DNA of 63,935 nucleotides, counting the filler, from Dimargaris cristalligena (lineage: Eukaryota): the NCBI GenBank assembly GCA_003614675.1. It is 26 parts of 26 records of this genome, joined end to end, with 100 filler letters (N's around TTAATTAATTAA, not from the genome) between each part and the next. Parts side by side here need not be neighbours in the genome. Positions count along the whole stretch, not along the records: positions 22,417 to 24,800 come from ML004231.1; 25 more parts are not named here. One strand, 5' to 3'. The notes under the pieces were generated by a model. It made no database searches and was not told the DNA's origin. It worked only from the letters and a program-made list of their open reading frames with translations. The first letter of the stretch is position 1. Each line of letters opens with the position of its first letter. A program made the translations under genes and the position numbers. Positions 2,985 through 57,469 of the stretch are shown piece by piece.

Positions 2985-3300
2985 ATTGCCCCTGGGACCT
3001 CTTGTCATGAGCAGTCCCTGCATATAAATAACTGGGCCCCTCTGTGACTGGTTCAGTTTTTCAGCTTATTCTTACCCCCTTAGTTTACTTAATAAAACTT
3101 TCTATATACTCAACCACCCTCATACTGACCAGTAAGTATGCACCACTGCATATCCCTTACATAGTTCTTGTACTTGCCTTTATTTAGTTAGTGCCAACTC
3201 TTCCCTAATACTAGTAGCCCAATTGACCAAGTCTAAGCCCCACCTACCATTAGATGCCTACCCCTGGGACTCTTGATGGATTAAGAGGGGATAACCCATG
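2985..3300 (+). repeat. LTR family A, degenerate 3' half
   Basis: Shares GGGACCTC...ATATA..ACTGGGCCCC...CTAAGCCCCACCTAC...GGACTCTTGA with the other copies. Confidence 0.65.
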
Positions 3301-5004
3301 TGAAATAACCCATTAATAAAAGAGACCAATTTTATGTGAATGTCTCCAGGAAAATGAGTTCCTGACCCAAGTATATTTTCTAGTATTTCCAGAAGCCATT
3401 TTGAGTATTTTTTCTGAGTACTTACTAGAGTTATCCCAGTTTACTGAGTTATTATCAAGCTATTAAGTTATTTGAGTTTCCTGAGTTCTATTAGTATTTT
3501 CCAAGCTTATTAGTGTTTACCCAAGTTTACTGGCATTTATCTGAGTCTTATTAATGTTTTTAGTGCCTTCCCAAACATATTTACTATTCTATATCACATC
3601 TATCCTCATCCTATTGGTGACAGGAATCCCTTTTGCCCTCTGTGCCCATGTCCCTCCCAAGCTCCCTACAAAGACCCTGTACTCCCACTGCCCTACAGGC
3701 TATATACACATCAGCAAAGGTTAAGTAAGACAAACAATACACATATTATGTATATACTCTCTCTCTCTAGGAATTTATTACCCTGGAGTGCTATAGAAGC
3801 ACATTGTATAGATGCATCATGGGAAGGCCCTCACACTTTGTATTCTGTGAAATAAAAGTATAGTAGATATTAGCAGTAACCCTTGGGTGGGTGCTGGTTT
3901 TGGAATCCAATAGAAGCAGGTGGTCATGAAACCATATATATAATTGTAGCATTCTCAAGTCCATATTTTAACCAACAGTGCTAAGGTAGGACAGCCATGG
4001 ATCAAACTACCTCTCTTTAAATAGTGGTATGTATGGCTTATGTGTAGAGTGAGTCAGGTTTTCATAAATGGTTCCTTAGTAATCAGATGGATAGAGTAAC
4101 AATAGGGGTATATACCAATGGTCAAGTTCCCACTTTCAATGGATTTTGTTATTAGGTACATGGTTTTTGAGAAACTGCCAACCAAAAAATTAATGGCATA
4201 CATTATTCCCAACCATTGGCATTCAATGGGGAATCACCTTCACCATGGATATATTGTAGTTTTAAACCCTTCCCAACAGAAAACCATAGGCAATCCCTCA
4301 CTGAATTGAGGGGTTATTTTAATTGCTTTCTGTTAACGGGTTTACATTCTGTGAGCTACAGTTCGGCCAGTTTCGTAAGTATTGTACACCTGTCGATGGG
4401 ACATATCTTCTTGTCCATACAACTGTATTTCATATATAAAATGTCAATTTTCATCCATGCTTTGGTAAATTTACATGCTGTATACGCATTGCTACAACGT
4501 TCCGGGGGGGATACCTACCAACCTTGTTAGTTTAACCCTTCGCAATTCCTCAAACGGCTGGCCCACTCGAGCCCACCATTTTCTGAGCCAAAGAATCTAC
4601 TTTCTATTGAGTCCCTATATCAGTGGGGGGGGGTTGAAGGGATGCTTGCTCCTGCTGTTTGGTCCTTGTTCTGAAAATGGTAGTAGACTGATTCATCGAA
4701 CTGTGCTGCTGCCGTGGCGTATGCACAATTCATGCAACCACACTGCCATTATTATTTTTAAATTCAGTACCTCACTTGTATTAAGTGCTCCTATTTCATC
4801 TAATTGAAATGTGTTTGTCGTAATCGACTGAGTTCGGGTAGACAATTCACCAGTTGGTATTTTGTTCGATTGCCAAAAATGGCCAACACTGGTGAGCCTC
4901 CAAGNNNNNNNNNNNNNNNNNNNNNNNNNNNNNNNNNNNNNNNNNNNNTTAATTAATTAANNNNNNNNNNNNNNNNNNNNNNNNNNNNNNNNNNNNNNNN
5001 NNNN

Positions 5005-6419
5005 TTGTTTGAAATACAAACTTCACAATTAAAATAATCAGAAAGAGAATTTTGGTCAACATTTATGATGCCATTTTTAGCAGCCTGCTTGAGGGTATCG
5101 AAATTAATATGGCCAAGAGAATAATGGACCTCCAAAAGGGAAGGAGGTTTAGGAATTTCAATAGCTAAATTTGCCATTGAAGTATGAGGATATTTAACTG
5201 AAAAAGGGTATGAAGAGTGTATTTTGTTGACTTGGAGAAGGGGAGTATTCCCCTCTTGAATGGTACAACGGCCTTGATGGAAGGTGAATTTAATTCCCCT
5301 CTCATCACTGGCTGGTACAGAAAGTAGATTATAACCCAAAGTGGGGCAGTGGCCCACATTATATAGGGTTAATCAGCGAGTATTATTGGATGGATCTAGG
5401 ATGTCAAGCTTGACTGTCCCATAACCCAAGATTGATAACTCTTTTCCATCTGCCAATATTAAATGGCGAGTTTCTTGTACATAATTATCAAATAAAGTAC
5501 GATCAGGGCAATAGTGGTAGGATGCACCCGAGTCAATAAACCAAGTTGACTTCGGATATTTGCCATCCTTCACTTTGAGTGCATGTTCAGGAATTTTAAG
5601 TACTAGCTGGGCTTGTTCAGCCTGGCTTTCCTTTTTCCCTTTATGCAGGGGGTTTCGAAAACATTCATCAGTGGAGTGTCCACTAGTTTTATGAATAGCA
5701 CAGTATGAGGTATCACCCTCTTTTTGTGTGTTTTTAACCCCCTTACTCTTACCCTTCTTACCTTTAAACTTGCCCGGGTTAGTTTTTACAGTCATGGCGG
5801 ACTCGAACATTGTTTTCGGTGTCGCCTCCCGATTGGCCAGGAATTGTTCTGCCTCGATAAATGATTGAACTACACTGTCGAAAACAAAAGAGTCCAGGTC
5901 CCGGGTATGCCATTGGCTGACTGTCAAGTGGAATCTTTCATCCACTGCCTGTAGAAATAGGAGAGTCAGTTGTTAGTCACTCGTAAGGTCGTATTTCTTG
6001 AGTTCCGCATCGAGAGATTGAATCTTCATGGCCAGTTGATGGATGGATTGGTTTCCCTGATGGATTCGATATAACTCAGAGTATAGAGTTAGGACTTTGG
6101 CCGTAGGTGGTTTGGCGAAGCGATTCACCATTGTTTTCCAGATTTCTTTGGCCGTCAGTTTGCCATCGAGGGAGTCCGCATACTGGTCATTCATGGATGC
6201 ATGGAGCATAAATGAAGCCATTTAATCATCCTTCAGGTACTGCTTGTTTAAGGCTTTCCCTTTAGGATCATCAGTGGTGGTTGGCTTGTAACCATCTTCT
6301 ACAATCTCCCAAAGATCAGATGATTGCAGGTATAGGTGCATAGATAGGGCCCAAGCAGTATAGTTATCACCATCAAACTGACGGGGTTGGATGTTAAGTT
6401 TAGAAAGTTTAGAACTCAT
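5005..6419 (-). pseudogene. Ty1/copia gag-pol relic (gag, Zn knuckle, aspartic protease, GAG-pre-integrase)
   Basis: FDGDNYTAWALSM (copia gag N-terminus), CAIHKTSGHSTDEC knuckle, WFIDSGASYH protease and HYSLGHINF...CEVC integrase Zn region. In-frame TAA stops at 6222 and 5973; frame break near 5373. Confidence 0.92.
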
Positions 6420-9986: not shown

Positions 9987-10425
9987 AAGGTGGTAATATC
10001 AGTGACTGCAGGGAACAGGGTGTTCATCATGAACTGGATGCACTGGTTAAGTTCTTGCAGGTCTTTGGTGGTGAGTCTCTTGGGTGCTTTGGTAGCTACT
10101 TGGTGTTCTTGAAGCTGGTTAGGCTGACATCCAAAGAAGACCAGAAAAGGTGTCATCTTGTACCTATTGGTGACCTTGGTGTTGATACAGTACTGGACAA
10201 AAGGTAGAACAAGGTCCCATTGGTACTTGGTTCCATAAATGAGTTTGACCATGATACTCTTGGCAGTCTGGACAGTTCTCTTGGCAGTACCATTAGCTTG
10301 GGGATGGTAAGGGGTGATTAATCGGTGGTCAATGGTGGCAGACTTGGTGAACTCAGTGATAAGCTTATTGACAAACTTGGTGCCATTGTCAGACTGGATG
10401 ATCTTGGGGAAGCCAACTAGGAGAA
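9987..10425 (-). pseudogene. Ty3/gypsy integrase core (rve) fragment
   Basis: VGFPKIIQSDNGTKFVNKLI...HRLITPYHPQANGTAKRTVQTAK...WDLVLPFVQYCIN...TPFLVFFGCQP. The usual DNGxEF, AERT and FGR motifs read DNGTKF, AKRT and FGC. Confidence 0.9.
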
Positions 10426-10432
10426 AAATAAA

Positions 10433-10651
10433 TTGAAGAATATGTTCCTACATGTTCTTTATTCTATCCTATTTATACCCAATTATGTTAGTTTATTCTG
10501 CTATCATGAGATCATTCATGTTAGCCACTTATATTTCACCTCACAGAAATTACAGTTCAATAAAACTAACCACCTAGAGGTACCTACTGTCCTCTAGCTG
10601 ATTTCTTCCCTTACTTCCAGTTTTATTTCCATTACGTTCTTAGTATTCCAA
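10433..10651 (+). repeat. Probable solo LTR, copia-like (~220 bp)
   Basis: Close copy at 20650-20872; both end ATTCCAATA, a TA-mutated form of the copia-type ...TTCCAACA end. Confidence 0.7.
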
Positions 10652-11640
10652 TAGAAACCAGATACTGTTAGCCTCCAGCTGGCTGGTGTAAAGGATACAG
10701 CCAATTTTAATCAATTTGACCAGCTCAATCCGGATTTTAAGCATATAAGATCTGAGCTGAAGAAGGTGAATTCCAAGGCCAGGGTTATTCCAAAATCGAC
10801 CATGACAACTGCCCCTAAAGAGTCTAAACCCTTTAACCCAACAGTCAAGGTAGCCACTAATTCCAGTTTTTATCAGCCTCAACCTGCTTGGGTATACAAT
10901 CCACTCAAAAATTAGCAGCCCACCTCTGAATCTACACAGGCCCCCACTGATGAACGTATGGATACCCCACCAGCCAGTTAATTGGTAAGGGATGAAGACA
11001 AAGCTGAGGCCATTTTCTATGATGCTGAATCTAGATCTAAAGTTGCCCCAGATGCCCTCTTGGTCATGCAAGAGTCTACTACCTCCACTATTTCAAAACC
11101 CTCAACCCAAATTAAACCCTAGTTCTGGTGACATTTCTTTACTAATTCTTCCCCTACCAATGTGGCCACACCATCAGCCCTTAAGCAAACTGAACCTTCC
11201 TATCTATTGAATACTTCTTCTGGGTAGTTGGGCTACTTTGGCCATACCCAGTAGGTAGTGTGAGTTCTCTAGTCAAGCAATTCTTTGAAACCTCTGTAGT
11301 CTTTATACTTGATTATTTGGGGGATAAGTTCATATACTATCACTGTATGCAATTCACTCATCCTTGTCATTATTTTGAAGTTTTATTTTGCTTAATTTTA
11401 GTATAGTTACTTATTGGGCTATTTACACTCCTGGATAATCACCAAGTCTCCATGTAGTTATGTTCTTTACTTTTTTTATTCAACCTGGATTCAATAAGTT
11501 ATAATAAAATGCACATTTAGTTATCCCATCAGTTATAGCTAATCATAAGTGTACTGCTGTGACAAGTCTATAGAACTATGGTAATTCTATCATTTTACTA
11601 ATAAGATATATATTAATTATTACATTTTTTTAATTTAATC

Positions 11641-12127
11641 TGTCAGACCTTTTAATCCAACTTCATCCAGACACTATGCTGTCCATCCCCATTAGGTCTT
11701 ATAGCACCATATTAACCTTCCCATGGTCACCCCCAGTACTATAGGATTACCCTATATCATATAACCCTTCCCCTTCTGGACTCAACCTATTTACAATAAT
11801 CACTCCAGTGCAGATCTGAAGACTCTTCTAGTTACCCTCCGAGTCCTCTAGATACTAGTACCTATGTGGCTAGGCTATTTCCCTATACCCTAGTCTTAAT
11901 AGTATTTCCCCCTCAGGACCTCCCTCTGGAGTTGTCACTATATATATATAACTAGGCCCTATTAGGACCAGTTAGATCCTTAAGCTTATTCTTCCCCTGA
12001 GTTTACCCCAATAAACTCTATATATACTCACTCCCCCTTATACTAACTAGTAATTATACTTACTGTATATCCCTTATATATCCCTACCACTAGGCCTTTA
12101 TTAGTTGGTACTGCACTCCATACCTGA
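11641..12127 (+). repeat. LTR family A variant, interrupted by family E
   Basis: Starts TGTCAGACC; homologous to 12815-13207 and to the reverse complement of 36469-36985. Confidence 0.7.
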
Positions 12128-12374
12128 TGTGGTGAACTTACCATATTTTTTACCTACTTTTATCTTTTATATATTTTTCCCACTTATTGGAAGTACGCCC
12201 CTGACAAGTTAATGAGCCCCTGCCCCTGACCCAACTGCACCCCTGTTCAAAGAATAGCTAACAATAGCTTTCTCCCTTTCTTTTTTTCCCTTCTATTATT
12301 TCACATTGAATTTATTGGTTACCCAAGTATTACCTATCCTTTGTGATGACTAATATGATTGTCTGGGAACTCCC
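12128..12374 (+). repeat. Repeat family E (TGTGGTGAACTTA...), probable LTR
   Basis: Copies at 29750-29913 (-), 32229-32598 (-) and 36986-37014 (+). Confidence 0.7.
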
Positions 12375-12474: not shown

Positions 12475-14112
12475 TTCAAGTATAAATACTCACACTTGCT
12501 GTCACCTCTTGGAACAGCAAGTCTATCATCACCTTTCCCTTTTTATCATCTATCTTTTCAAATAAAGTTTGGTTTTTAAGGATTTGATTTCAGTTCTTTA
12601 CAGTTAGCATTATGCCCTTACCTAACACTAGGACCCGCTTGGCCAAGTCTAAGTCCTGTCTGACTATTAGAAGCCTACCCCCAGGACTCTTGACAGACTA
12701 AGAGTAGATATCCCAGGTGATATTAATTAATATATATACTAAACTCTTATTATTATTTATACCTAACTTATTAATTGCAAACTTCCTACTCTAATATTAA
12801 TATATCTTCCCTAATATTAGACCTTCTAATCCACCTTAATCTAGCTAGCTTAGATGTCTAACTATATTAGGCCCTATAGTGCCATATTAGCTTTCCTATA
12901 GTCACCCCTGGTACTATGGGATTATCCTATATTATATAACCCTCCCCCTTCTGGACTCTGCCTATTCATACTAATTACTCAAGTGCTAATCTGAAGACTC
13001 TTCTGGTTACCCTTCGAGTTTTCTGAATACTTATGACTATCCAACTAGCCCATTTACCTATACCTTAGTTTAGTAGTATCCCCCTCCAGGGACCTCCCTC
13101 TGGAGTTATCCCTATGTATATATAACCAGGCCCCATTGGGACCAGTTAGATAGCTTAGCTTATTTCTTACCTCTTAGTTTACCCTAATAAAACTCTATAT
13201 ATACTTATATAGTACCATCCAGAGGTTGGCACTTATCCCCAGACTATGGACAGCCAGTTATCCTCATCAGGGGGCAGAATATACCATAATATACAATGGT
13301 GGTATTATTCCCAGCATTTTCCCACTGAAATTACCTCCTATACTGTGGCATACACAAAAAAATATATCTTATACTCATGGTTTACATTAAAAAGTCCACT
13401 ATTCTTCCTTGTATTTAAAAGTTTGACCTATTTTTCAGTGGATTCCTTGTCATTCCATTATTGACCTTTTTTCTATGTCCCTTTCCTTGTATCCAGCAGC
13501 CCCTAAGGCCCACAGGATAGTTACATAAGTAACTAGCAAATTCCTGTTTATTTAGAGAAAGAATAATCATCACTCATTTTAAATTTCAAACTCATTTCTA
13601 CTATTCTTTGAACTCAACCATGACTTTTATTAATTATTAATTATTAACTCCCTTAGTTCTATTATTTCTCAATAAATATTGACACCCCTTGTTTATCCCT
13701 CTGTTCCCCATCTGGTTTACTAACTATCTGCCCCTTTGTTACCCCTGCATGATGACACCCAACTCTGCCCCTGTCTCCTCTAACTCCATAAACCTCCTGT
13801 CTTTGACAACCAGGGAGCTAGCTGCCACAACTTTTGGCTGTGCTGATAAGGAGGCTGCTACCTCCTTGTAAAACCCAAAGGCCACTGGCAATAGGTTGGA
13901 CCTCCCAGGTAGTATACTTACCCCCCCCCCATATACCTACTAATAAGTGTGCCCACTGTATGTCCCTTACATATACCTATTGTAGCCTTTATTAGTTAGT
14001 ACCTGTACCCTGTACCTGATACTAGTAGCCTGCTTAGCCAAGCCTAAGCCCAACCTATTGTTGGAAGCCTATCCAAAGGACTCTTGACAGACTAAGAGTG
14101 GTTAACCTGGGT
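12475..14112 (+). mobile_element. Nested LTR cluster: family G end (~12540-12602), family A pieces (~12620-12720, 12815-13207, 13915-14112), family F (13208-~13910)
   Basis: G matches 19933-19994 and the reverse complement of 59111-59166. F matches the reverse complement of 57470-58226. A matches the other copies. Confidence 0.7.
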
Positions 14113-14961: not shown

Positions 14962-15010
14962 GTTCCAGTGCTGATTGCGTCGTGGGTGCTGGAGGGACAT
15001 TGGATAGTAC
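14962..15010 (+). repeat. 49-bp direct repeat (partner 17293-17341)
   Basis: GTTCCAGTGCTGATTGCG...GGATAGTAC is identical at both ends of the contig. Confidence 0.95.
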
Positions 15011-15054
15011 AACTGAGGATAGTGATGATGTATACGTTACATGTATGGCCCAGC

Positions 15055-15079
15055 AATAGACCCAAAGCAACCAGCATAT
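15055..15079. repeat. 25-bp perfect inverted repeat (partner 17148-17172)
   Basis: AATAGACCCAAAGCAACCAGCATAT versus ATATGCTGGTTGCTTTGGGTCTATT. Confidence 0.95.
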
Positions 15080-16889
15080 ACTTCCCCTCCTCTTCCAACC
15101 GGATCAAAGCTACCCGCGATGGCAAATTTATTATGGCTACAGGTAAGTGCCTTTTGGCTTGATTGAGTAAACTGAGTGTAATCTTGATGTGCGCGGCGCT
15201 CGTTCCAATGTAACTAACCCCTTCGCCGCCTTATCACCCTAACCCTAAATTAAACAGGAACCTATAAACCCCGCATGCGAGTGTTTGAATTTGCCGAAAT
15301 GTCCATGAAGTTCGAACGGCACACGAATTCCGAGAACGTCAACTTCACCCTACTATCAGACGACTGGACCAAGAGTGTCCATTTGATGAGCGACCGGTAC
15401 CTTGAGTTTCACTCCCACGGAGAAATGCACTACCGAACTCGTATTCCCGCCTTTGGTCGCGATCTAGCGTATCACCGGCCCACCTGCGACTTGCTCGTGA
15501 CCGGCGCCCAATCCGAGGTCTACCGCCTTAACCTAGAGGAGGGCCGCTTCATGAAACCCTTCGAAACCAGCAGTGCCGCGGGCGTCAACGTGGTGGACAT
15601 CAACCCGGCCCACCAGCTCTTTGGTTTCGGTACCGAGAGCGGGACCGTGGAGTTCTGGGACCCTCGGGCCAAACGTTGCATCGGAACAGTGGTACCCAGC
15701 GCCTCCCAGGCCATCGTAGACCCCTCCGTGAAGGACTACGGGGTGACTGCCCTGAAGTTCCACGACGATGGCCTGTCCTGTGCCGTGGGAACTTCGGCGG
15801 GCCAGGTGATGCTCTACGATCTCCGAAACGCCTCTCCCTACCTATCCAAGGATCATCGCTACAGTCTGCCCATTAAGAGCCTGGCGTGGCACACCTCGGC
15901 CATGGACACGGCCGACCGGCAGCACCGGGTCATCAGTACCGACAGCAAGGTGATTCGTATCTGGGACAAGTTCACGGGCAAGCAAATGACCTCCATTGAG
16001 GCCAGTCGGCCCCTGAACGACGTGTGCGTCCTGGGTAACTCGGGCATGATGTTTGCCGCCAACGAAGGTGCCGATATTTACGGGTTTTATATCCCGGCCC
16101 TCGGCCCCGCGCCCCGCTGCTGCTCCTTCCTGGACAACCTCACGGAAGAAATGGAGGAGAACCCCAAACACACCATCTACGACGACTACAAGTTCGTTAC
16201 ACGCAAGGAGCTATCGTCGCTCAGCCTGGACCATCTGGTGGGCACCAACCTGCTACGGCCCTACATGCACGGATTCTTTGTCAATCTGCGTCTGTACGAC
16301 AAGGCCAAGTCGATTGCCGAGCCCTTTGCCTACGACGAGTACCGCGAGAAGCAACTCCGCACGATTCTGGACAAGGAACAGGCCTCCCGTATCCAGGCCA
16401 CCGGCACCAAGAAGGAGCGCAAGGTCAATCGCCTGCTCGCCGAACGGGCCGCCAAGCAAAAGAGCCTCCTCACTGGGCACCGGTCCAAGTCGGACGGTGC
16501 GGCCAAGAACCTGCCCAGCCTCCTCCACGACAGCCGCTTTACTGCCATGTTTGAAGATCCCGATTTTGAGATTGATAGCGAAACTCAAGAGTTCCAGGCT
16601 CTTCAAGCCGGTCAGGTAAGTCGACATTGGGTGCTAGCGAAACCATTTATCCAGCTAGGTCCACAGGCACTCCTTGTCCTGTCCTATTTGGCCTATTAGG
16701 TGGTACGTGTGACTAACTAAGTATTGCCAATTTATGCTGTTTATATTATCCTTGTTTTTTAACGCTGCGCTTGAACCATGCCATACCATACCATACCATA
16801 CCACGCCCGCCGGCCAACAGTCTATTTATACCATGAAGCAGGCCGGCACTTTCCAGAAGGAAGATCAAGACGGGGCCGACTCTGAGTAA
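15080..16889 (+). CDS. NOL10: Nucleolar protein 10 / ENP2 (WD40 + NUC153), 5'-truncated; exons ~15080-15142, 15258-16615, 16821-16889
   Basis: FPSSSNRIKATRDGKFIMATG|TYKPRMRVFE...DDWTKSVHL...SFLDNLTEEMEE...YDDYKFVT...YMHGFF...DSRFTAMFEDPDFEID. GTAAGT...AG introns at 15143-15257 and 16616-16820. Confidence 0.92.
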
Positions 16890-17608
16890 TCGGTCCGCCC
16901 AGTTGTTTTGGGCCAGAGCCAGGCCAATTTGTGTTTCCCGTTAAATTGACCTTTCTTATGGGCCACCCTTTGTTTTTTATCCACCATTAAATGGGCATTA
17001 CATTCAATAGAGTGGTGGTGTATCCGGGTGATTTGGAACATTTCGGTTCACATTTGGTTTTTTCCATTAATTGCGGGGTTGGTGATAATGGTTGAGGGCC
17101 CAGTTTGCTGAGTCCTCGGGGCTTCGAGTGGACATAGGAGGGGGGGGATATGCTGGTTGCTTTGGGTCTATTCGTATAACAAACAGCGTGGCGTACGGCA
17201 ACACTCCCGTCCTTCTATTGACGGACAGTATGGAGGAGGGATATATAGAAGCCACCTATTGCCAGGACATCACGTGAGAGGCGGTCCTCTTTGTTCCAGT
17301 GCTGATTGCGTCGTGGGTGCTGGAGGGACATTGGATAGTACTATGCTNNNNNNNNNNNNNNNNNNNNNNNNNNNNNNNNNNNNNNNNNNNNTTAATTAAT
17401 TAANNNNNNNNNNNNNNNNNNNNNNNNNNNNNNNNNNNNNNNNNNNNTTGCCCAAACCACCTTCACTGGCTGTCTCGCGCCAGGTCGCATCGTCACCTCC
17501 GCTGGTTTCTCCGCCTAGGCCCCCGAATACAAGGTCATCTCCGTGGCCGACTCAAGTATCCCCGTGTCGTGTGCATTTGCGCAATTGATTGTGGCCATCT
17601 TACACACA

Positions 17609-18034
17609 ATGGACGTCCTGGCTGGAATACTGGATGACTGTATACTGTCGGGGTTGGAACATGATGTGTCGGCTTTTGCGATGGCTTTACTCGATGTAGC
17701 GGATATGAGACCCAGTAATTACTACATTACTCGTAGCGAACATCGCTTTACGTTTGGTCGTTGCGATCTTACTGTAGCCAGCTTTGACACCAGACATGAG
17801 ATACTGGTAATTGAGTGTAAGAGTAAAGGAGCTCGCGAGGCTGCTGGTGTGGAACAATTATTCGAATATATGGTCAAATGCAATTTTCCTCACGGGTTCC
17901 TCATGTATCCTGATCGAACAATCTACTTTCGCCAAAACGAAGAAGGAGTGCCTATGAAAGTCCGTACGTATTGCCATAAAAATGACCTCAGTGATATGTT
18001 GTCGCAGGTTCGGAGTTTCCTGGTACCCCGCTAA
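17609..18034 (+). CDS. Small PD-(D/E)XK restriction-endonuclease-fold protein (~141 aa from the first ATG)
   Basis: E...GRCDLTV...ILVIECKS...GVEQLFEYM...GFL gives D, ExK and QxxxY motifs; intronless. Confidence 0.75.
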   Translation: MDVLAGILDDCILSGLEHDVSAFAMALLDVADMRPSNYYITRSEHRFTFGRCDLTVASFDTRHEILVIECKSKGAREAAGVEQLFEYMVKCNFPHGFLMYPDRTIYFRQNEEGVPMKVRTYCHKNDLSDMLSQVRSFLVPR

Positions 18035-19769
18035 TTAGTTGTGTCATCCGGTTAACTATGAATAATTGGCATCGGTTGATTGCGAATCCCGCACATAATC
18101 AGTATATCAATACAATGTTTAACTTGCCTACATGCTCTCGGCATCTATTGTGACTGCTTTTGTTATAGTACTATCATTTTTTGATAACATTATCCTTGCA
18201 AATAAAAATATTATTATATTTCGCAGTTCTTGACGCTTCGTGCTTTGAAGGTGCACTGACCCAATACCACGCATACGCTTAACCAAGCTATCGTTGTCTG
18301 AAAAATAGTATATACATATTGGTAAGTTCAGCCTGACTGGAGAAATTGGATAGTGGCAAATTGCCAATTTGTCATAACCCCAGATGGTATTTTTGTTAAT
18401 AGCGAATATGTATGAGCGTAATTAAATTAGGGAGGAATCTTTCATTAATAGCTGTAGATATATGGACACACGATGATAATAAGCGGTAATGGGTTAGTGA
18501 GTAGCGGGTAGGATTAATAGCCATCTAAGGGTCTACATTAGGGCACCCCAATGCCCTATATTTATACTGGAGTATTGACGTACCCGATGGTGCGGATACC
18601 GGGCAGTTGCTAACGTCGGTATGGGCTGACACATGGGCCCTGCTCGGCAGAGAGCCATAGACGCAGAGTTCTGGCAGGTTCTAGCGTGGCCTCATGTTAG
18701 TGTACCGAGTGGTGCTGCTTCAGGGTTTCCATTGGCTGGTATCCTTGTAGTAGCATCCGGTGGTTCTACAGCCATGGTTGTAGTATGTGTACTGACATGG
18801 GCAGGGATGGGGTTTTCATTCCATGAGAATAACCGGTTGTTCAACGTTGGCACACTACCCCGACACTTAATAAGCAAAGATCCGCCACCTTGAATAGTTC
18901 TCTTGATAGTATAATGGACGCCGCTGATAAACCTTCCAAGTCTAGTTAATATTCTTCACTTTACTTAGCCGCGCTTCATTCACCTTCGCAAAAAAGCCCA
19001 TGTTCCCATGTAGCGTCAAGTGAGAGGAAGGAATTCCACTCACCAGAAGAAAGGGCACAGTGGCGGAGTTTTTCTGACTTCCATATTTCAAGTTCAGCTT
19101 ATTTAGATAACATGAACGCCTCGGTGGATCCAAGGTGATTCCAATTCCCGATTATTATTTAGTTATTTTTACACGAAGTTTTTAATCCTGAAGACTTGAC
19201 CAGTTTTTCCCTTCGTGGTTTTATGGTTGCTAGTCCATCCGAGGACGAAGTCCAAGAGGCGTAGTATAATTTTAGCCCATAATACAATTTCATATATATA
19301 TAGCATTTTTGTCGGCCCTTATAACGGGAAGTTATTCTCCGAGATACATCCGAATAAATATCTATCCTTAACTTCACCCAGTGTTTTTACCCAGTATCAG
19401 CCGATGACTTCAAGTGGAAGCCGATTTATGTTTTATCTTTTTACTATTATTTTATTTTCTTCACCCAGTTGTCCTTCATGGGAACGTTGTTCCCCCTCGG
19501 ACAACTTATGCTGGGCATTCCCAGCGGAAGTTCGTTAATAATAATAGGCCTCTTGAGGCCGTAATAGGCTTTATTTCATCAGATTTGATATATAATGTAA
19601 ATGGTTTTTAGTAAAAGATGAATCCCTGCCTCGGCAGGTTATATGTACTGCTGCTCTAGTCCGGGGTATGCCCTCCCTTTTCTTCCTTAGACCTTTTGAA
19701 AGCCACAACTCACACTTCTATATTTCCCCTCCCTATATTATATATTCAAAAAACTATTAACCCACTTTC

Positions 19770-19832
19770 TGTCGCCCGAGTTAACCACTCTTAGTCCGTC
19801 AAGAGTCTCGGGGGTAGGCTTCTAACAGTAGG
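19770..19832 (-). repeat. LTR family A 3' terminus, little-mutated copy
   Basis: On the minus strand it ends ...TTAACTCGGGCGACA, inverted relative to the 5' TGTCGCCC. CpGs are intact here but not in the other copies. Confidence 0.75.
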
Positions 19833-20441
19833 NNNNNNNNNNNNNNNNNNNNNNNNNNNNNNNNNNNNNNNNNNNNTTAATTAATTAANNNNNNNNNNNN
19901 NNNNNNNNNNNNNNNNNNNNNNNNNNNNNNNNTTTTATCACCTATCTTTTCAAATAAAGTTCAGTTTTCAAGGATTTGAGTTCAGTTCTTTACAGCAGGT
20001 CTATCACCAATGGTATTACTCATACATTGAAATTTAGAATACCAGGTGTAAAGATAGACAAGGGGAATGTAAAAAGTGCAGGGCTTAGGTGTCGAGAGTG
20101 AACCTGTCAGAGATCAAACTATTAGGATCAGCCAGATATATGGGTATAGGGACACGGGCCTTCCCTTAGGGATGTGTTAATTAATTTTGCTTAGCCAAAA
20201 AAATGCCCCAGGTAGCTTAAAGCCATAGCCCTGCATTAGCATAGAGCCTTGTCAAGGGATTGGTGGGTTTGGGTATAAGAAGAGTAAGAGCCACCCTCTC
20301 TAAAAACATTATCAACATTGCCATCACATTCCTCATTTCCCAATTTCAACTCATATACATATTAGCATCCCTACTAGATAGCTGGGCTATTAACATACTC
20401 CAATCTTTCATTCCATCTCATCTTATCCCATTTACCTTACT

Positions 20442-20649
20442 ATGGCTTGGATTATTACTAAGGTTTTGATTCTGGGTGCCTTCTGTGCTATTACTGTTAT
20501 GGTCATCACCAATGTCAGTACTTTACAGACCACCCCCCAAATCCCCAAACAGTTCATCAGTACCAACACTAATCTGCAGGCACATCCCAGTAAGCAGAGT
20601 GTGTCTGCCAAAAACAAGCCTACTATTCAAGATGCTGGTTCTAACAACA
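20442..20649 (+). pseudogene. Possible secreted-protein gene 5' end, cut by a solo LTR at 20650-20872
   Basis: MAWIITKVLILGAFCAITVMV signal-like start; CpG-free; the ORF runs into the LTR. Confidence 0.35.
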
Positions 20650-22416
20650 TATTGAAGAATATGTTCCTATGTGTTCTTTATCCTATCCTATTTAAATCCA
20701 ATTATGTTAGTTTATTCTGCTATCATGAGATTATTCATATTAGCAACTTATATTTCACCCTACAGAAAATTACAGTTCAATAAAACTAACCACCTAGAGG
20801 CACCTACTATCCTCTAGCTGCTATCTTCCCTTTCTTCCAGTTTTATTTCCTTTAAGCCCTTAGTATTCCAATACCAGATTCAAGGGCTGGGAATTTAGTC
20901 TAAATGAGATACAGTAATAAATATTAGAAAGAGTTACATAACTTGTACTGATGGTTCCTATACCAGTTATATATTCATTTTTCTCCTTTGTTAAGAATCC
21001 CGCCATTTCTGAGGAGTGACTCAAAACTTACAAGAGTCAGAAACTACAGCCTAAATAGTATTATCAGTAAGAAAATATCTAAAAATAAAATCAAAAGCCA
21101 GGTATTTTCCACTGGGAAATAGAGCTTCATTAAGAACTTAATAAATGATTAGAAAAATAATAACGGAGCCTAAGTGTGAGGAAGAAGTATGTGGATCCCA
21201 ATAAAAGGTCAATCCGTGGTTGGATACTTCCCAGTATGGCCCATTAAGTACAGGATCTTAACTATAGCTGTGGGTGTAGGGGGGGGTGTTAATTGGAATA
21301 AATAATAATTAGTAACAGGATTTGCCCCTTGGGTCTGCCATGGCCAACGTTAAAGCAGCCTGCTGAAGAAGTGCACCCCCATGACTGTTGGGTTAAAATA
21401 AGAAGACCCTGATTCAGCCCTAGCGCAATGTGAAATATGAAGGACGGCTGCCCCCCACCCCCAGGGTTCCTTTATAGTACCCAGCAGGGCGACATGGGAC
21501 AGGAAATGGTATTGGGAAAAGGGCACGACTACTATGTATGGTACCTACTACTTAATGGACCAAATTAGCCAACATCTTCATGGCGGGAGATTAGTCTCCT
21601 AGGTCAGTCTTGGACTATGCAAAACAAGCGCAGGGGAGAACAGTAAGGCAGGGAGGGAAATTGCGGGTAGAGAGGCATTGGGTGGTGTCAGGACAAGGAG
21701 GGGGGGATGGACCGGGGCCGGGTGAGCCACACTACCTCTTCTACTCACCCTCTCTGTATTTCTCGCCAATCAATGTTCAGGAACTACTGAACCCGGCGAT
21801 CAAATGATCTGTCGATGGGACTCCTTTAGGCTCTAAATAATTTGCTGGGCCAATTGATCCAGATGGTGGCTCCCAGCAGTCCAGTGTTCAGGCTGGTCGA
21901 AGGGGGGAGAGTAGGGGATTTACATGTTTGGGGTTGGCTGAGTAATCTTGTCCATACCATTCTCTGCCTGGTTTGGTTTAATTGACAACCAAAACTACAA
22001 AATAAACAGGTAGTCGGGGTATTGAAATGCCCCTGGCTCTGCTGTAGTTTCTGGTTTCATTTAAAGCACCAGGGCCAATAGTGGCCAAAGTGTGCGAGGG
22101 CAAGCCACACTCTATGGGTATGTGCGTGGATCTTTCTTTTTGGGACAAAGGAACTCGATGCACAAGCTCCACTGGTCAAAGATGGGATGCTTCTATTTCA
22201 CCTTCGGTATTGTTAGAATAGCCAATGGAATGAGTATTTTTATTAGAAAGAGGAACTAGTAGTAAGAACTTTAATGATAGCAATGTGAGCACTAGTAAAC
22301 TAAAGGATCAGGGTGCNNNNNNNNNNNNNNNNNNNNNNNNNNNNNNNNNNNNNNNNNNNNTTAATTAATTAANNNNNNNNNNNNNNNNNNNNNNNNNNNN
22401 NNNNNNNNNNNNNNNN

Positions 22417-23232
22417 TTGGCCACAAGTTTGTGTTTCTGAAGTGTCTGGAGGACCTAGTGGACATAGTGGACGTGGTCTGACTTGGTTTTGCTGAAAATG
22501 AGAATATTATTAAGGTACACCATCACAAACTTGTCGAGGAAGGGCAGGAGGATGTTGTTCATGAGGGTCTGGAAAGTGGCGGGGGCATTGGTGAGGCCAA
22601 AGGCATGACAAGGAACTCAAACTGGCCATACCTGGTGCTGAAAGCTGTCTTGGGGACATCAGAGGGGTGGATTCTGATCTGATGGTAGCCAGTCTTGAGG
22701 TCAATCTTGGAGAAAATGGTACTGCCAGATAGTTGGGCAAAGGACTCAGTGACATCTGGGATGGGGTATCTATTTTTCACAGTTTCCTTATTCAGGGCCC
22801 TGTAATCAATACATAGTCTCCTGGTGCCATCTTTCTTGGGAACAAAGATGACAGGGGAGCTCCAAGGGGAAGCACCAGGTCTGATCCAGCCCTTCTCCAT
22901 GTAGTCTGAGAGTTGGGCCTGGAGTTCTTGGAGATCAGGCTGGGAGAGCCTATATGGGTGCTTAAACATGGGTGCTGAGCAGCCAGTGTCAATGTGGTGG
23001 TCAATGGCCCTAGCAGGAGGGAGGCCAGGTGGAAGGGGGCCAAAGACAGTGGTGCTGAATTTCTGGAGTAGTTCTCTGAGTTCTGGTGGGGCCTGGGACA
23101 GTGGGTCAGTGGTGGTTGTGGGTTCTGAAAGGACAAGGAGGAAGGCGTCCTGGCTGTGGTCATGGAGTTCTCTACCCAGCTGTTTGGCAGAGATAAGGGA
23201 CAGGCTGGGGTTCAGTGGTGCAGTGGGGTCAG
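22417..23232 (-). pseudogene. Ty3/gypsy reverse transcriptase relic
   Basis: [28 protein letters not shown]...[15 protein letters not shown]...[17 protein letters not shown][frameshift][10 protein letters not shown]...[10 protein letters not shown], with catalytic YLDD reading YLNN. Confidence 0.93.
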
Positions 23233-24800
23233 TGAGCAGGTGGCATGTGGTTATGTGAAACATGGCTGATAAGTATGAGAGGTGAGAACATGGAAATGTG
23301 TTGTGGTGTAGGCACCACAATATTAACAACTCACAAGATGGGGAAAGAAAGGGGAGCAAACTGTGGAGTAACTAATAATCACCTGAAGCCAAGGGGATAT
23401 TGTGGTGCCCCACCACATAACTCTATTCCCCTTTTACCATTTCCCCCTCTTTCCTTTTCCTTTGTCTTTCTTCTGTGTTCATCATTGTGTCACCATTGAT
23501 TCCCATAATTCCCATGATACCTTATTCTTCCTTCCCCTTCCTTTGCTAAGCCTTTCCCATTTCTTGGCTTAGCCTGATTGGTCCTTAATTCTGTCTTATG
23601 CATGAGTCACCTAGCTGATGACTAATGGACCATTTTTTCTCTTGCTTTCCACTTGATCATTGAATATAAATAAATTCTTGTCTGCCCCTCTTGGAAGGAG
23701 AGACAACATTGGCTTATACAATCCTTTCTTGATTCCATTGACCCCTTCAACTTCTAATTTTGGAGTATCCCAATTTTACCTTGGCTTCAGGTGACTTTTA
23801 GTTGCTTCATTGTTTACTATTCCTATCATTTCCCATCTTGTGAATTGATACCATCACCTCAGCTTTAGGTGATTGTTTAACTCTATATCAATTAAGTTAC
23901 TTTGGCTCTTTACCTGTAGTGTTAGGAATTCAATATTTAACCAGATATTATTGAATAATAAGAAAAATTGTTTTATGGCTAGTACCTACAATATTTAATA
24001 GGAATCCCTTTGCCTTATCCCAACAGTCTGCAATCCCTCATTTACCCTTACGAACATGATAGATACACTGTATGACATGGGCCACAATAATAGTTTCAGA
24101 TGAAATATGACAGACGTGGTACTATCGGGTTAAATAAAGTTGTGATTGGGGGATTTATGTGATTGGACAATTATGAAATATGTCCCATCCATATAATAGA
24201 CTTTCCCATTATGTATGCTTCGTATACAAAATTACCATATTAAACTAACTTTATGGCTATGTCCTATTGAGGTGCCAAACTCGATGAAACAGGGTGAAAG
24301 GCTAATTAGCATCTGAAGCCAAGGTTGTGGTGCCTACACCACATTACATTTTCTTTATACCTTCTTCTCTCCTTTTCCATTTCATTGGCCATGATTTACA
24401 GGACCACTGAGGTGCCTACACCACAACACATTTCCATGTTCTCTCTTCTCATACTTATCAGCCATGTTTCACATAACCACATGCCACCTGCTCACTGATT
24501 GGGTTGTCCTCATCATTGGCCATGTTTCATACAACAACCAGCCCACCTTACCATTGATTGGCTGTTACATCTCACTGGCTATGTATTACATAACAACCTG
24601 CCCACTATCCTAATGATTGATCTCTCTGTCCCTTGCCAAAGCCCACCACATGCCTAGTCTAGTCCAATTGGATTATAGTTCTATCACATGCATATAATCC
24701 TCATACTGAAGTGCCAATAGGGCCAAATTGTTAAAGAGTTAACTCGTCACCTGAAGCCAAGGTGCTAATAACAATTAACAAGATGGGCAAAGAAAGGGAA
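23228..24800. repeat. Rearranged LTR-like family D fragments, including an ~88-bp inverted duplication (23228-23316 / 24411-24498)
   Basis: Recurrent CA(C/T)CTGAAGCCAAGG (near 23380, 24310, 24748; reverse complement near 23779) and TGTGGTGCC..CACCACA starts (23401, 24326). Confidence 0.6.
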
Positions 24801-50084: not shown

Positions 50085-51898
50085 ATGATCGACTCGGGTT
50101 CGAATAATCCTTCCTTGAGCTTCTGCTTTCCTGTGGTCCCAGCGAACCACCAGCCCTCCACTGATCTACCCCTCGAAAGGCCCCGCGTCGCTCTTGTGGG
50201 CTACGCCGCCTTGGCAAACAACCTTTGGTTTTCCGATCTGAAGCCCTTCCATCGGGACAACTTTGAACGAAGCAGCCAGCTAGCCACGGCTATTATCCTA
50301 AGTCGCTACTACCGCCAGCCTGCGATTGCCTTTGCCCACTGGCAAGGTCTGGTCGGACCAATGGACGTCGTTGACCTGTCTCCAAAGAAACTACGGCTTG
50401 TTCTTGCCGATGTGATCCCCGACACCCCTGTCTCCGCTGCCATCCTGCAAACCCATGTACCTGGCCCTCTCTCTGATCCATCCAATTCTCCTGGCCCAGT
50501 GGTCGAAGTCATTCTCCACACTGATGTAGATGGCACCGGAGTGATCCGTTCCCTGTCGAAATCCGGAAGCAGTCACAGTCGACCCGAGGAGGTTGAGACA
50601 GATCCGCATATCACTGATCTATTGGCCAGAAGCACCACCCATCTGGCCATTAGTTGCGCATTTTACCAGGGGCAGGCCCAGGTCACAGTGACTTATGCCC
50701 GAGCCCTATACCGCGATTCTGCCGTGGCGGAGTTCATCAGCCAGTTTGGAACTATCTTCTCGGCTGTTTCCCGGACATCGGAGAGCAACCAGTCCACCCT
50801 TATACGCGATATTCCGTGGGTTAGCGACCAGGAAAAAATCCGCCTCTTAGATTTCTCCCAAATGACTAAGCCAATCCAGGGAGATTACCGGCCTTTCCAC
50901 CACCGTTTCAGTGACTGTGCCAAACACTTTCCGGACCATCTTGCCCTGGTCCACGGTCGTGAAGAATGGACCTACGCCCAGCTAGACTACGCCAGTTCGG
51001 AACTGGCCAGAGTTCTAGTAAATCAATACGGGGCTCGCCCTGAGGTTCGGTTTGCGCTGCTTATCCCCAGGTCAATTGCCTATCATATGACCATTCTGGC
51101 TGTACTCAAGTCAGGGGGTGCCTACGTACCCCTTGACCCCAACTATCCCGCTAATCGCATCCAGTTCGTCCTAGAGGACAGTGACGCTTCGCTGTTAATT
51201 GTTGCTGAATCAGTACTCGGGAGTGTCCCCGGCCAGCTCCAGGTACCCACCATGACTGTGGATCAATTCGTCCAGCAGCCTGTATTTACTGAACCTTCTG
51301 GCTTCCGGTCATTCCCCTCGTCACCGAAAGATTTGGCCTACATAATCTATACCTCCGGGACCACTGGTCGCCCCAAGGGCGTCTTGATTGAACACCGAGG
51401 TGTGGCCAATTTATCCACCGATCAGTTGTTAGGGAGCACCTACGGGCCGGGTCGCCGCGCTCTCCAAACCGGATCGGTTGCATTTGATGGTGTTCTTGCA
51501 AACACCCTTCGATCATTTTCCTCTGGCAGCACTCTTGTGGTCTCGACAGATAACCTACTGGAAGACTTGCGGAATGTCAATACGGGGTTTCTTACAACCT
51601 CATTTCTATCTCGCTTGAACCCTCTAGAATTTCCGGAGATGAACACAATTGTTGTTGGCGGGGAAGCTCTGCTACCAGAGCAGCAAGCCCTCTGGGCACC
51701 CCACTGTCTCCTAGCAAACTATTACGGTCCAACAGAAGCCACCGTCTACTCCAATGTAGCGTTTATCGGCCCGGGTGACGATATTACAATCGGTAGGCCT
51801 ATCCACAATGTCTTCAATCTAGTGGTTGACAATGAACTTCAGTTAGTGCCCGTCGGGGTTCCCGGTGAACTCCTCATTGGCGGTGTGGGTGTGGCCCG
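50085..51898 (+). CDS. Non-ribosomal peptide synthetase, copy 1 (degenerate C-domain C-lobe + adenylation domain), 3'-partial
   Basis: A1 WTYAQLD, A2 LKSGGAYVPLDP, A3 LAYIIYTSGTTGRPKG, A4 FDG, A5 NYYGPTE, A6 GELLIGGVGVA; YARALYRDSAVAEF resembles the C-domain end. Confidence 0.93.
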
Positions 51899-55824: not shown

Positions 55825-57469
55825 TCCAAGGGGTGGGCAGTAGGAATGGTAGGGGTGGGATAGTTAAAATTACTATAGCATACCCCAGAGGCAAATATAA
55901 TAACGAGGCAGATGGGGAGGGGGGTTACTAGAGAAAAGTGTCAAGGAAGCGAGTTGAGAAGGATGGGTGGGCCATGGGGGCTCGGAAGCCGGGCAGGCCT
56001 AATATACCCATCGCCAGTTGCCAGCGACTTTTGGGGCTCTGGTGTGGGAAAGGCGGGGCGTCAAACGGCCAGCTAGGTCATGGCCACACCCAACCTACTT
56101 GCCCTCAACGAGGCGCGTGCCTCTCCTCCTCTATATACCCAGTTGCCATAGGTTTGGTAGGCTATAAGACTATAGGCTTTCATCAGTTGCTAATGAACCC
56201 TGTCAACAGCGCAGCGTCAGTCTTCGTCAATAAAGCCTTCCGTCTGGTTGGAACCTTTCACCGGGGTGGGGGCGTCTTCCAATGCACCCAAATGGGAACT
56301 AGTCTATACCGGAAGACGCAGTTATTACCATACAAAGCGAGCAATAAACAGTTCAGACCCGCCACTTTTAAGCCGCCCCTTCCAAATACATTCACAATCA
56401 AATCGCTCTGAGCTCGACCCATTTGCCTTGACGGGTTCAATTATGAAGGCCTGCTGCTCCCTCCCGGCCAATTCGGATAGCTATCCCTTCAACACGCCTA
56501 TAGAACAGCGGTTCTGAAATGACACGTCTCATTTAAACAGGCGGTACCAGCAGTTAGAATCGAACCAAGAGAGGGAGGGGGCTTGTCCAGCCGCACCAAC
56601 TAGTCTTCGTCAAGGGCGTATAGCCCCCCCCCCCCCATCCACCGTTTGACGAGACAGGCAGGGCACGATTGATAAATATTACGAAAAGAGAGGGGGGACT
56701 GGTAAAANNNNNNNNNNNNNNNNNNNNNNNNNNNNNNNNNNNNNNNNNNNNTTAATTAATTAANNNNNNNNNNNNNNNNNNNNNNNNNNNNNNNNNNNNN
56801 NNNNNNNATTCAGTATAGGAATAGTCCTTTAATAAGTAGTGGAAAGTAGCTTTAAAGTATTGAAAAATAGTAAAAAGTAGTTAAAGAAAGGCAATTTTTT
56901 ACTAGTCCGGTTGCCAGACATCAATTTACATAGTACACTTTTTTTTTGGCTTTCCCAAGTCATTATTCATAGAGTAATTATAGGTCTTATGATTGATCAC
57001 AGGGTCGGGGATCATTTTTCCCTCATTTTAAAAAAAAGTCCCATCAATCTACCTATTTCCCATTTCGATAAAAAAAATAGTCCTGCTACATCAATTGGAA
57101 CTTTCATTCAAACCATTATATAGCTTGATTGAACTTCTCCCATATACTGTTACCATTGGATATTGAATTTGGGCAGGTTCCAAATGACATAATCATTGTC
57201 ACTGTCTGGAGTTCAACTAGGTTTCAACCACTTGGCCTGGAGGCTATATGTTTCACTGGGTAGTATTTTGTAAGTACCAGCATTAGTGTTGACAATGCCA
57301 CCTACAAAACACCAGGTGTATGGATTGCTAGCTGGTTCCCAATTGTGCCGCATGTAAGGATTGGCCCCATAGATGGCCTGTCAGTAGAGAGCAGTTCCAT
57401 TTGCTAGGACAGAGGTAACATTAATAAGAAGCATGACCAAGTTGAAAATCTGTTGGAAGGTAAACATGT

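Follow-up and report, generated by a model that had tools for sequence, protein, structure and literature searches.

Transposon remains of the early-diverging fungus Dimargaris cristalligena have lost most of their CpG by C-to-T change, while neighboring genes keep it

The window and its transposon fragments

Contigs of Dimargaris cristalligena carry two mutated fragments of Ty3/gypsy-type transposons, one of a reverse transcriptase (RT) and one of an integrase, and the present analysis concerns the C-to-T changes in these fragments and in the repeats of the same genome. The DNA analyzed, here called the window, is 63,935 nucleotides long and consists of 26 contigs of assembly GCA_003614675.1 (c1 to c26, about 2.4 kb each). 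The contigs measure 2,210 to 2,402 bp, are ordered by decreasing length, and are joined by N44-TTAATTAATTAA-N44 (e.g., positions 2403 to 2502); the window is therefore a collection of many loci, in which genes on different contigs have no genomic neighborhood. These 26 contigs and the contigs of public sequencing runs form the evidence base throughout. The runs number five, come from two studies under one organism code, and contain 58 to 77% of the sampled words of positions 14962 to 24800.

The open reading frame (ORF) of NOL10/Enp2 on c7 (positions 15254 to 16696) matches a D. cristalligena protein at 100% identity, and its next-best matches are in Dimargaris xerosporica (64%) and Tieghemiomyces parasiticus (63%). 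The host is a mycoparasite of the Dimargaritales (Kickxellomycotina, Zoopagomycota). A first interpretation made from the DNA alone (the sequence-only reading) had placed the window in an early-diverging fungus, which these protein matches bear out, and Pfam agrees with its calls of NOL10, ATG9, a Dicer-type helicase, and a BAR/PH SLM1-like gene.

When 82 Ty3/gypsy Pol proteins were compared with the window by tblastn, matches were found on c10 and c5 only, a result that does not imply one common family. Both domains expected of such elements are present, RVT_1 on c10 and rve on c5, and the catalytic boxes of both are mutated (YLNN in the RT, Glu>Lys in the integrase). Coordinates are collected in Table 1.

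Table 1. Features of the window discussed in the text, with positions along the whole stretch
Feature	Position	Strand	Evidence or remark
Ty3/gypsy RT fragment, c10, ended by contig edge	22417..23371	-	Pfam RVT_1, E 8.8e-11; contig CpG o/e 0.09
TAC CTT AAT AAT (YLNN)	22506..22517	-	homologues Y-x-D-D; both catalytic Asp -> Asn
TAG stop in RT frame (CAC TAG GTC)	22455..22457	-	reachable by one C>T (from CAG) or one G>A (from TGG)
Integrase core and C-terminal fragment, c5 (Pfam rve)	9989..10447	-	Pfam, tblastn
ACC AAG (codons 23-24), c5 integrase	10376..10381	-	ACT GAG in other genomic copies
AAG (Lys) after GCC, c5 integrase	10280..10282	-	Glu invariant in 56/56 homologues
CpG-poor single-copy stretch between high-copy repeats, c5	10707..11666	.	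single-copy at >=80% likeness
Family 1 reference copy, c15 (~520-bp non-coding repeat)	36467..36987	+	
Family 1 copy, c5	11705..12128	-	
Family 1 copy, c13 (mixed contig)	29915..30219	-	
Family 1 copy, c16, reaching contig end	39281..39559	+	
Family 1 copy, c2	3023..3310	-	
Family 1, three c6 pieces (12602-12726, 12884-13205, 13926-14109)	12602..14109	-	
Family 1 copy start, end of CpG-rich c8	19767..19832	+	CpG kept at 3 scored sites; other copies TG, CA, or TA
Mixed contig c1	1..2402	.	bases 1-1000: 6 CpG (o/e 0.1-0.3); 1001-2000: 9-15 CpG per 200 bp
Mixed contig c14	32229..34606	.	first 1,000 bp: 2 CpG, repeat copies at 1-370; last 1,200 bp: o/e 0.6-1.1, 5-12 CpG per 200 bp
Subtilase gene start, CpG-rich end of c14	34321-34605	+	protein match
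CpG-free stretch, c17	39660..41586	.	1,927 bp, 0 CpG vs 47.6 expected, 51 GpC; then o/e 0.4-1.0 on same contig
Copia-type fragment, c3 (Pol_BBD, gag_pre-integrase)	5007..5972	-	Pfam; contig CpG o/e 0.40 (intermediate)
AMP-binding enzyme gene, c21 (control)	49538..51898	+	84.6% identity to c25 59267-61625 over 2,361 bp

CpG is depleted in repeats and retained in genes

Repeats, defined as DNA common to several contigs, hold 44 CpG in 7,008 bp, a ratio of observed to expected CpG (o/e) of 0.15 at a GC content of 0.41. Outside long ORFs, the unique DNA of gene contigs holds 604 CpG in 14,934 bp (o/e 0.79, GC 0.45), and the long host ORFs hold 924 in 13,020 bp (o/e 0.89, GC 0.57). GpC o/e stays between 0.79 and 0.98 across all three compartments and is 0.79 in the shared repeats, so the depletion is specific to CpG. 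The sequence-only reading had described the single-copy genes as rich in CpG, as the ORF value confirms, and had proposed the comparison of repeats with unique DNA. The depletion is far beyond chance, as the stretch of c17 with 0 CpG against 47.6 expected illustrates. In the transposon remains, about five sixths of the CpG sites are gone through C-to-T change, while neighboring genes keep theirs.

At the level of contigs, CpG o/e is 0.08 to 0.25 in c2, c5, c6, c9, c10, c15, c16, and c24, and c17 as a whole (0.30) lies just above this low group; GpC o/e in the repeat contigs, at 0.79 to 0.95, is not correspondingly reduced. The intermediate contigs c1, c3, c4, c13, and c14 (0.38 to 0.59) are mosaics with abrupt switches, and the twelve gene contigs range from 0.75 to 0.93. 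The CpG-free part of c17 contains no Pfam domain in six frames; it is non-coding and has no repeat assignment.

These mosaics bear directly on another explanation, namely, that the CpG-poor contigs come from another organism, such as the co-culture host Cokeromyces recurvatus named in the available portion of PMC6784888, or are artifacts of single-cell amplification. According to that portion, the only screening of contigs was by comparison with bacterial and mammalian databases and by principal-component analysis of tetramers, and c10 has no physical link to any gene contig. CpG-poor repeats and CpG-rich gene DNA are, however, joined on c1, c13, c14, and c17, and a copy of one repeat family (family 1, below) abuts the CpG-rich DNA of c8. 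On c14, the subtilase in the CpG-rich end matches a D. cristalligena protein of a second assembly at 100% identity and two paralogues there at 92% and 75%; Cokeromyces is absent from the 3 matches obtained for it among 193 candidates, although the database does include a NOL10 of Cokeromyces. Runs of both studies contain the repeats and the c5 locus, and errors of amplification would not single out CpG or stay within repeats. Because the compartments are joined within contigs, contamination is very unlikely for the repeat families, and for the CpG-poor contigs overall an extraneous source is hardly credible. Foreign origin of the mutated contigs had been named by the sequence-only reading as fatal to its case; the sharp CpG switches inside single contigs and the subtilase identity dispose of that concern.

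The base preceding the CpG has no effect on its loss. Retention relative to the gene contigs is 0.15 for ACG, 0.22 for CCG, 0.17 for GCG, and 0.21 for TCG. In Pucciniomycotina (Microbotryum and the rusts), transposons reportedly undergo TpCpG hypermutation, in accounts going back to Hood in 2005 and Horns in 2012, and the present case resembles this type in being a CpG-centered C>T hypermutation of repeats outside Ascomycota. We rejected it, since all four NCG trinucleotides are depleted alike, with TCG inside the 0.15-to-0.22 range and no preference for a 5' T. Editing of retroelement cDNA of the APOBEC type was likewise rejected, as the changes affect both strands, are centered on CpG, and extend to non-coding repeats and to the CpG-free non-coding stretch.

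Repeat copies have decayed in place

All-against-all comparison revealed repeat families common to c2, c4, c5, c6, c8 (at its edge), c9, c13, c14, c15, c16, and c24, with identities of 70 to 98%. In 31 alignments of at least 100 bp each, repeat copies differ by 938 transitions and 418 transversions (2.24), and the single control, a pair of AMP-binding enzyme genes on c21 and c25, differs by 239 and 122 (1.96). The sequence-only reading had held that differences between LTR copies are overwhelmingly transitions. This does not apply to the old copies, whose ratio is close to that of the control, but it stands for the youngest copy examined, the c5 integrase, with 11 transitions to 1 transversion at the 12 places listed.

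Adjacent double mismatches are more telling. CA in one copy stands opposite TG in another in 88 of 349 such mismatches in repeats, against 3 of 64 in the gene-pair control (Fisher P = 1.1e-4), and the mirror pair AC/GT occurs 13 times in the same repeat alignments. Two copies with CA and TG at the same site display the two products of one former CpG, which argues that the decay took place after insertion, in place.

Family 1 is a non-coding repeat of about 520 bp. Among nine pieces, the states at 29 inferred former CpG sites are TG (56), CA (47), TA (44), and CG (6), and the base 5' of these sites is T at 3, C at 10, A at 7, and G at 9. Both CA and TG occur at 17 of 49 pyrimidine-purine (YR) sites, and both AC and GT at 4 of 50 purine-pyrimidine (RY) sites. 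In an analysis of singletons with an invariant neighbor, CA and TG amounted to 17 copy-sites each, too few for a comparison at CpA. Two of the c6 pieces (12884 to 13205 and 13926 to 14109) are one family 1 copy interrupted by an insert of about 720 bp, and this insert is 69% identical to a part of c24 (57468 to 58224), a nested insertion. Contig c8, which ends in the CpG-keeping copy of the family, also contains an ORF (17519 to 18031, plus strand) with a weak match to a PD-(D/E)XK nuclease (PDDEXK_9, E 4.3e-6).

A young integrase copy carries private C>T and G>A changes

To give the changes on c5 a direction, run contigs were matched to it at a likeness of at least 80%, which yielded 2,513, 3,139, and 1,959 fitting pieces in three runs. 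At the integrase places listed (positions 9987 to 10546), c5 carries 10 private C>T or G>A changes, no reverse change, and 1 transversion relative to essentially all other genomic copies. At the twelfth listed place c5 has G and the others have A, beside a T-for-C, so that c5 reads TG and the others CA. The ten private changes comprise E>K (GAG>AAG), R>Q twice (CGA>CAA), D>N, H>Y twice, A>V, and three silent ones, and other copies of the family still use CGA where c5 reads CAA.

With family letters restored at the places listed, the per-site rates are 3/8 at CpG, 6/99 at CpA, 1/65 at CpC, and 0/74 at CpT. Compared with CpC and CpT together (1/139), CpG is raised with P = 4e-4 and CpA with P = 0.02. 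Along the plus strand, the ten changes read T,T,A,T,A,T,A,A,T,T, that is, six C>T and four G>A, interleaved. Such interleaving of strands is expected of independent deaminations, but with n = 10 many successive events would produce it as well.

The sequence-only reading had reported integrase E>K changes at ACC AAG and GCC AAG, and both are there. For ACC AAG the CpG origin that it proposed receives direct support from the other copies, which read ACT GAG: the two forms both descend from ACC GAG, in which one CpG was struck on opposite strands. GCC AAG occurs at codons 55-56 and 62-63, with Lys where homologues have Glu, and for the Lys at 10280 to 10282 a GAG>AAG change at a codon-boundary CpG would explain the loss of the invariant residue. 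The R>C change that it had also listed was not recovered; instead, Arg is replaced by Gln, in the two CGA>CAA changes relative to other copies and in one CGG>CAG relative to the homologue consensus.

The ends of c5 are a very high-copy repeat and its middle is single-copy, yet this middle is also CpG-poor. Run X4, from the second study, differs from the window at 13 places in 1,098 bp across it (positions 10622 to 11720); among the ten differences listed, nine are transitions, and six of these nine belong to the CA/TG-TA class. The last 230 bp of the contig (12147 to 12374) reach a summed word depth of about 430,000 to 740,000 in run X2, against about 200 in mid-contig; this figure is not a copy number.

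The reverse transcriptase is lightly broken but long CpG-poor

The RT fragment on c10 has a stop-free frame of 270 codons (22562 to 23371), a -1 frameshift at about 22601, and a continuation in the next frame. The catalytic motif TAC CTT AAT AAT reported by the sequence-only reading is present, and its two Asn positions are occupied by Asp in 100% and 98% of 115 aligned Ty3/gypsy homologues. The fragment is only lightly broken, by one frameshift, one stop, and two Asp>Asn changes. No protease or gag was detectable upstream of the RT on c10, which indicates that the element is truncated or rearranged there. Upstream of the fragment there is also an inverted repeat of 91 bp at 96.7% (23229 to 23319 and 24408 to 24498).

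Eighteen positions depart from a homologue consensus of at least 80%, and five of them fit C>T or G>A changes: G51S, D168N, D169N, H183Y, and R192Q. Four of these five sit after the frameshift, within the last 25 codons of the aligned span. The shortest path to YLNN leads from GAT GAT to AAT AAT by two G>A changes after T, which are of the CpA class on the other strand. The ancestor CTC GAC GAT proposed by the sequence-only reading would need four changes at two CpGs, and CTT GAT GAT needs two G>A. Dimargaris is not represented among the closest protein relatives, whose identity is only 45 to 58%, which leaves YLNN without sister codons for comparison.

The codon usage of the open frame differs from that of the host. 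Arg is encoded by 0 CGN and 12 AGR codons, whereas seven host ORFs use CGN 200 times and AGR 9 times, and among four-fold Ser, Pro, Thr, and Ala codons NCG accounts for 1 of 86. No C>T or G>A change can turn CGN into AGR, and Arg is intact at conserved positions; the CpG poverty was thus gained under selection. A pressure of long standing accounts for this, as does an origin elsewhere, but a burst of mutation following insertion does not.

An origin elsewhere could be extended into a general account, in which CpG poverty is mostly inherited, through horizontal transfer from a methylating genome or a long past in a methylating ancestor, and the present host adds no special mutation. The RT codon usage in a frame still open for 270 codons, the distance of its nearest relatives, and the lack of any repeat shared between c10 and the other 25 contigs all favor such an account, and for c10 alone it may apply. 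As a general account it is distinctly improbable, because it leaves unexplained the CA/TG pairs at the same sites within one family (88, with 13 of the mirror type), the CpGs remaining in the c8 copy, the CGA>CAA and GAG>AAG changes private to the c5 integrase in a family that uses CGA, and the CpG-free non-coding stretch of c17.

Deamination of methylated repeats or a RIP-like mutator

The sequence-only reading had invoked "a repeat-directed mutator or dense repeat 5mC" (5-methylcytosine), and in this broad form the proposal holds: C>T and G>A changes are centered on CpG, confined to the repeat compartment, and later than insertion, and they reach catalytic residues of RT and integrase. With a probability of roughly 0.6, we take deamination of 5mC in methylated repeats to be the best reading. 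Repeats and transposon relics of D. cristalligena would lie in a compartment whose cytosines are methylated now or were until recently, mainly at CpG and with a weaker non-CpG (CpA) part. Methylcytosine would turn into thymine by deamination, taking CpG to TpG or CpA and, with a second hit, to TpA, and genes and unique flanks would be unmethylated, so that their CpGs stay. Old copies would then be nearly CpG-free and young ones still losing CpG, with the catalytic residues of RT and integrase broken as a by-product, and element lineages active under this pressure would have evolved CpG-free coding with Arg as AGR. The methylation itself and its enzymes, of the DNMT1, DNMT5, or DIM-2 class, we infer.

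As expected of 5mC decay, the loss is limited to CpG with GpC as control, TpG and CpA stand at homologous sites, and genes and their flanks are spared. The single-copy stretch of c5 is as CpG-poor as the repeats around it, which fits regional methylation better than homology sensing, and the 0 CGN and 12 AGR codons of the RT frame speak for a pressure exerted over evolutionary time.

Vertebrate Alu and L1 elements exhibit such 5mC-driven CpG decay of methylated repeats. The repeats of the window share with methylated-repeat systems the TpG and CpA products between copies, the restriction to a transposon-rich compartment, the independence of the 5' base, and long-resident elements with CpG-free codons. 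They differ in that methylation is here deduced from its footprint, that TpA and CpA>TpA are commoner than CpG-only maintenance predicts, and that the phylum of Dimargaris is called 5mC-poor in reviews. The likeness in CpG-specific loss with GpC spared extends to the repeat CpG methylation of other fungi, namely, Basidiomycota, Phycomyces, and Linderina pennispora, as far as the available portions of PMC13297926 and PMC11258239 describe it.

Several points weigh against this interpretation. TpA is over-frequent at the inferred former CpG sites (44 of 153 states), and the repeat alignments pair CA/TG with TA in 310 of 628 cases (49%) but AC/GT with AT, the mirror class, in 186 of 661 (28%); in the gene control the corresponding values are 17% and 21%. 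This second step to TpA is not predicted by a strictly CpG-only maintenance methylase. The pairwise repeat counts derive from related, overlapping copies, so that events are not independent; the polarized c5 counts come from 40 listed of 254 variant places, 12 of them in 9987 to 10546; and the between-strain spectrum of run X4 stands without a gene-DNA control. Furthermore, in the parts of two reviews at hand, 5mC is described as scarce in Zoopagomycota (PMC11258239) and near-undetectable in early-diverging fungi (PMC13297926).

Non-CpG methylation of a DIM-2-like kind and an enzyme like the one behind repeat-induced point mutation (RIP) would each explain the excess of TpA and CpA changes, and the data do not separate them. 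In family 1, once the CpG-derived sites are set aside, CA/TG-TA occurs at 13 of 16 sites and AC/GT-AT at 17 of 23, and the excess is gone. The CpA component, which rests on the c5 rates and on the CA/TG-TA counts, is therefore only suggestive.

The second of these possibilities leads to a fuller alternative to methylated-repeat decay: an enzyme-driven mutator, based on a methyltransferase of the RID/Masc1 or DIM-2 type or on a deaminase and active in a sexual or other stage, that would turn C into T in repeats in bursts, at CpG far more than at CpA. The directional changes of the c5 integrase, with their 11:1 transition bias and raised CpA>TpA rate, agree with it, as do the frequent TpA states at former CpG sites and the CA/TG-to-TA excess, which is specific to YR dinucleotides and missing from the gene control. 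The YLNN motif, the TAG stop, and the RT H>Y change are each explicable by changes of the CpA class.

Dinucleotide indices give a divided picture. RIP is indicated by a TpA/ApT index of at least 0.89 and a substrate index, (CpA+TpG)/(ApC+GpT), of at most 1.03. The shared repeats have values of 1.21 and 1.07, with a composite index of +0.15; the eight low-CpG contigs have 1.02, 1.26, and -0.24, and the transposon coding parts 0.76, 1.38, and -0.62. The TpA/ApT and composite indices of the shared repeats thus favor the mutator, whereas the substrate index lies above its threshold in both the shared repeats and the low-CpG contigs, and the composite index of the latter is negative, a value above 0 being the criterion for RIP in the available text of PMC11105155.

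A mutator that senses duplication should also have struck the gene pair on c21 and c25, but this 2.36-kb duplicate is intact and CpG-rich. The members have open frames of 661 and 635 codons and CpG o/e of 0.80 and 0.86, and they are co-terminal with 2 gaps. The two may be paralogues, alleles, homeologues, or modules of a single gene resembling a nonribosomal peptide synthetase; that their contigs end alike suggests that the assembly broke at the same flanking repeats.

Further evidence against the mutator comes from the c5 and c10 fragments. The main target is CpG (3/8), with CpA second (6/99); the ten c5 changes alternate between strands, with no strand-coherent run; and a burst on a gene coded with CGN would not leave an open 270-codon RT frame with AGR for Arg. 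The transition-to-transversion ratio of older copies is just 2.24, and a single-copy stretch is depleted equally. Taken together, these observations make an enzyme-driven mutator of this kind unlikely, though it accounts for the TpA excess that CpG-only maintenance does not predict.

The comparison with classical RIP, as in Neurospora crassa and other Pezizomycotina with RID and DIM-2, is correspondingly mixed. The window resembles it in the directional C>T and G>A changes that are concentrated in repeats and wreck transposon genes, in a secondary preference for CpA>TpA, and in a raised TpA/ApT in high-copy repeats, yet the single-copy stretch at 10707 to 11666 is depleted as well. It differs in that the main target is CpG rather than CpA, no lowering of the substrate index is seen, duplicated genes are spared, strand-coherent runs are lacking, old copies have a transition-to-transversion ratio of about 2, and the lineage lies outside Dikarya. 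Given this CpG-first target, the negative or borderline indices, the spared gene pair, the interleaved strands, and the evolved RT codon usage, the label "RIP-like" that the sequence-only reading had used does not stand in its classical sense.

Still more doubtful is the specific proposal that Dimargaris possesses an active enzyme-driven repeat mutator outside Dikarya, acting at CpG first and CpA second and taking both strands of a CpG to TpA. Such a mutator would explain the TpA excess, the CpA-class hits (YLNN, H>Y, and TAG), and the positive composite index of the high-copy repeats. If it existed, genome defense of the RIP type would predate Dikarya or have arisen twice.

Repeat methylation and RIP signals in Zoopagomycota

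The sequence-only reading had considered such a process not well described in Zoopagomycota. For the phylum this needs qualification. In Linderina pennispora, of the same subphylum, 5mC is found almost exclusively in repeats (Lax et al. 2024, in the portion of PMC11258239 available), and in Entomophthorales RIP-index signals are reported with caveats alongside genes with DNMT domains (PMC11105155, text available in part). For Dimargaris itself, nothing on transposons or methylation was found. Our literature search returned no paper on Dimargaris transposable elements and repeat content, and for D. cristalligena and methylation none of the matches listed (titles and abstract starts) dealt with repeat methylation, although supplementary tables may list DNMT genes.

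The Entomophthorales report, as far as its available text goes, lends some support to a mutator in this phylum. It offers a compositional hint of repeat-directed C>T outside Dikarya, but its evidence consists of windows of a composite index of the TpA/ApT type, whereas here CpG loss is polarized from copy to copy and the indices are mostly negative. A kingdom-wide screen places RIP-like signatures in Ascomycota only, to judge from section 9 of PMC12543289, which describes enriched k-mers and scaffolds of more than 50 kb. That design would pass over CpG loss and skip fragmented single-cell assemblies, and it would miss the present case.

The literature also lends the methylation model indirect support, within the subphylum and outside it. 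In Phycomyces, which has DNMT1 and DIM2, repeat 5mC is CG-dominant with some CHG and CHH, according to the same partial text of PMC11258239, and the excerpted bioRxiv 10.1101/2023.01.30.526367 places a CDCA7-like factor, which co-occurs with DNMT1 and HELLS, in Coemansia and Linderina. The reviews, in the portions available (PMC13297926 and PMC11258239), nevertheless depict the early-diverging fungi, among them Zoopagomycota, as almost devoid of 5mC, with N6-methyladenine as the dominant mark.

The window is a clean, real example of a known process in a lineage where it is not described, and it leaves the CpA component as a question. A zoopagomycotan mycoparasite has repeats with a deep, still-progressing, CpG-centered C>T footprint and genes without it. 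D. cristalligena offers a concrete case in which cytosine methylation directed at repeats could be sought within Kickxellomycotina, and in which one could ask whether the CpA component stems from non-CpG methylation or from a RIP-like enzyme.

Other features of the window

A Pfam scan of 20 further ORFs yielded nothing beyond the Copia fragments on c3 and the weak PDDEXK_9 match on c8. Contig c20 (47071 to 49437) is normal in CpG yet odd in other respects, with TpA o/e of 0.52, TpA/ApT of 0.47, and (CA+TG)/(AC+GT) of 1.68; it contains an internal direct repeat of 150 bp at 78%, and its longest ORF has no Pfam match. Across the whole of c22 runs an open frame of 749 codons (52001 to 54247, plus strand; GC 0.59) that matches no Pfam family at E 0.01.

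On c18, an ORF at 44020 to 44502 (plus strand) begins with a signal-peptide-like start and encodes a Cys-rich motif (CCNIYWD.QKP..ERNP.RP.I.CDP) twice, with a linker rich in Thr, Glu, and Pro in between. Its product, which has no Pfam match, is possibly a secreted repeat protein. Contig c7 repeats the same 49 bp (100% identity) at its start (14962 to 15010) and 6 bp before its end (17293 to 17341), which looks like a circular assembly-graph path or an amplification chimera around the NOL10 fragment.

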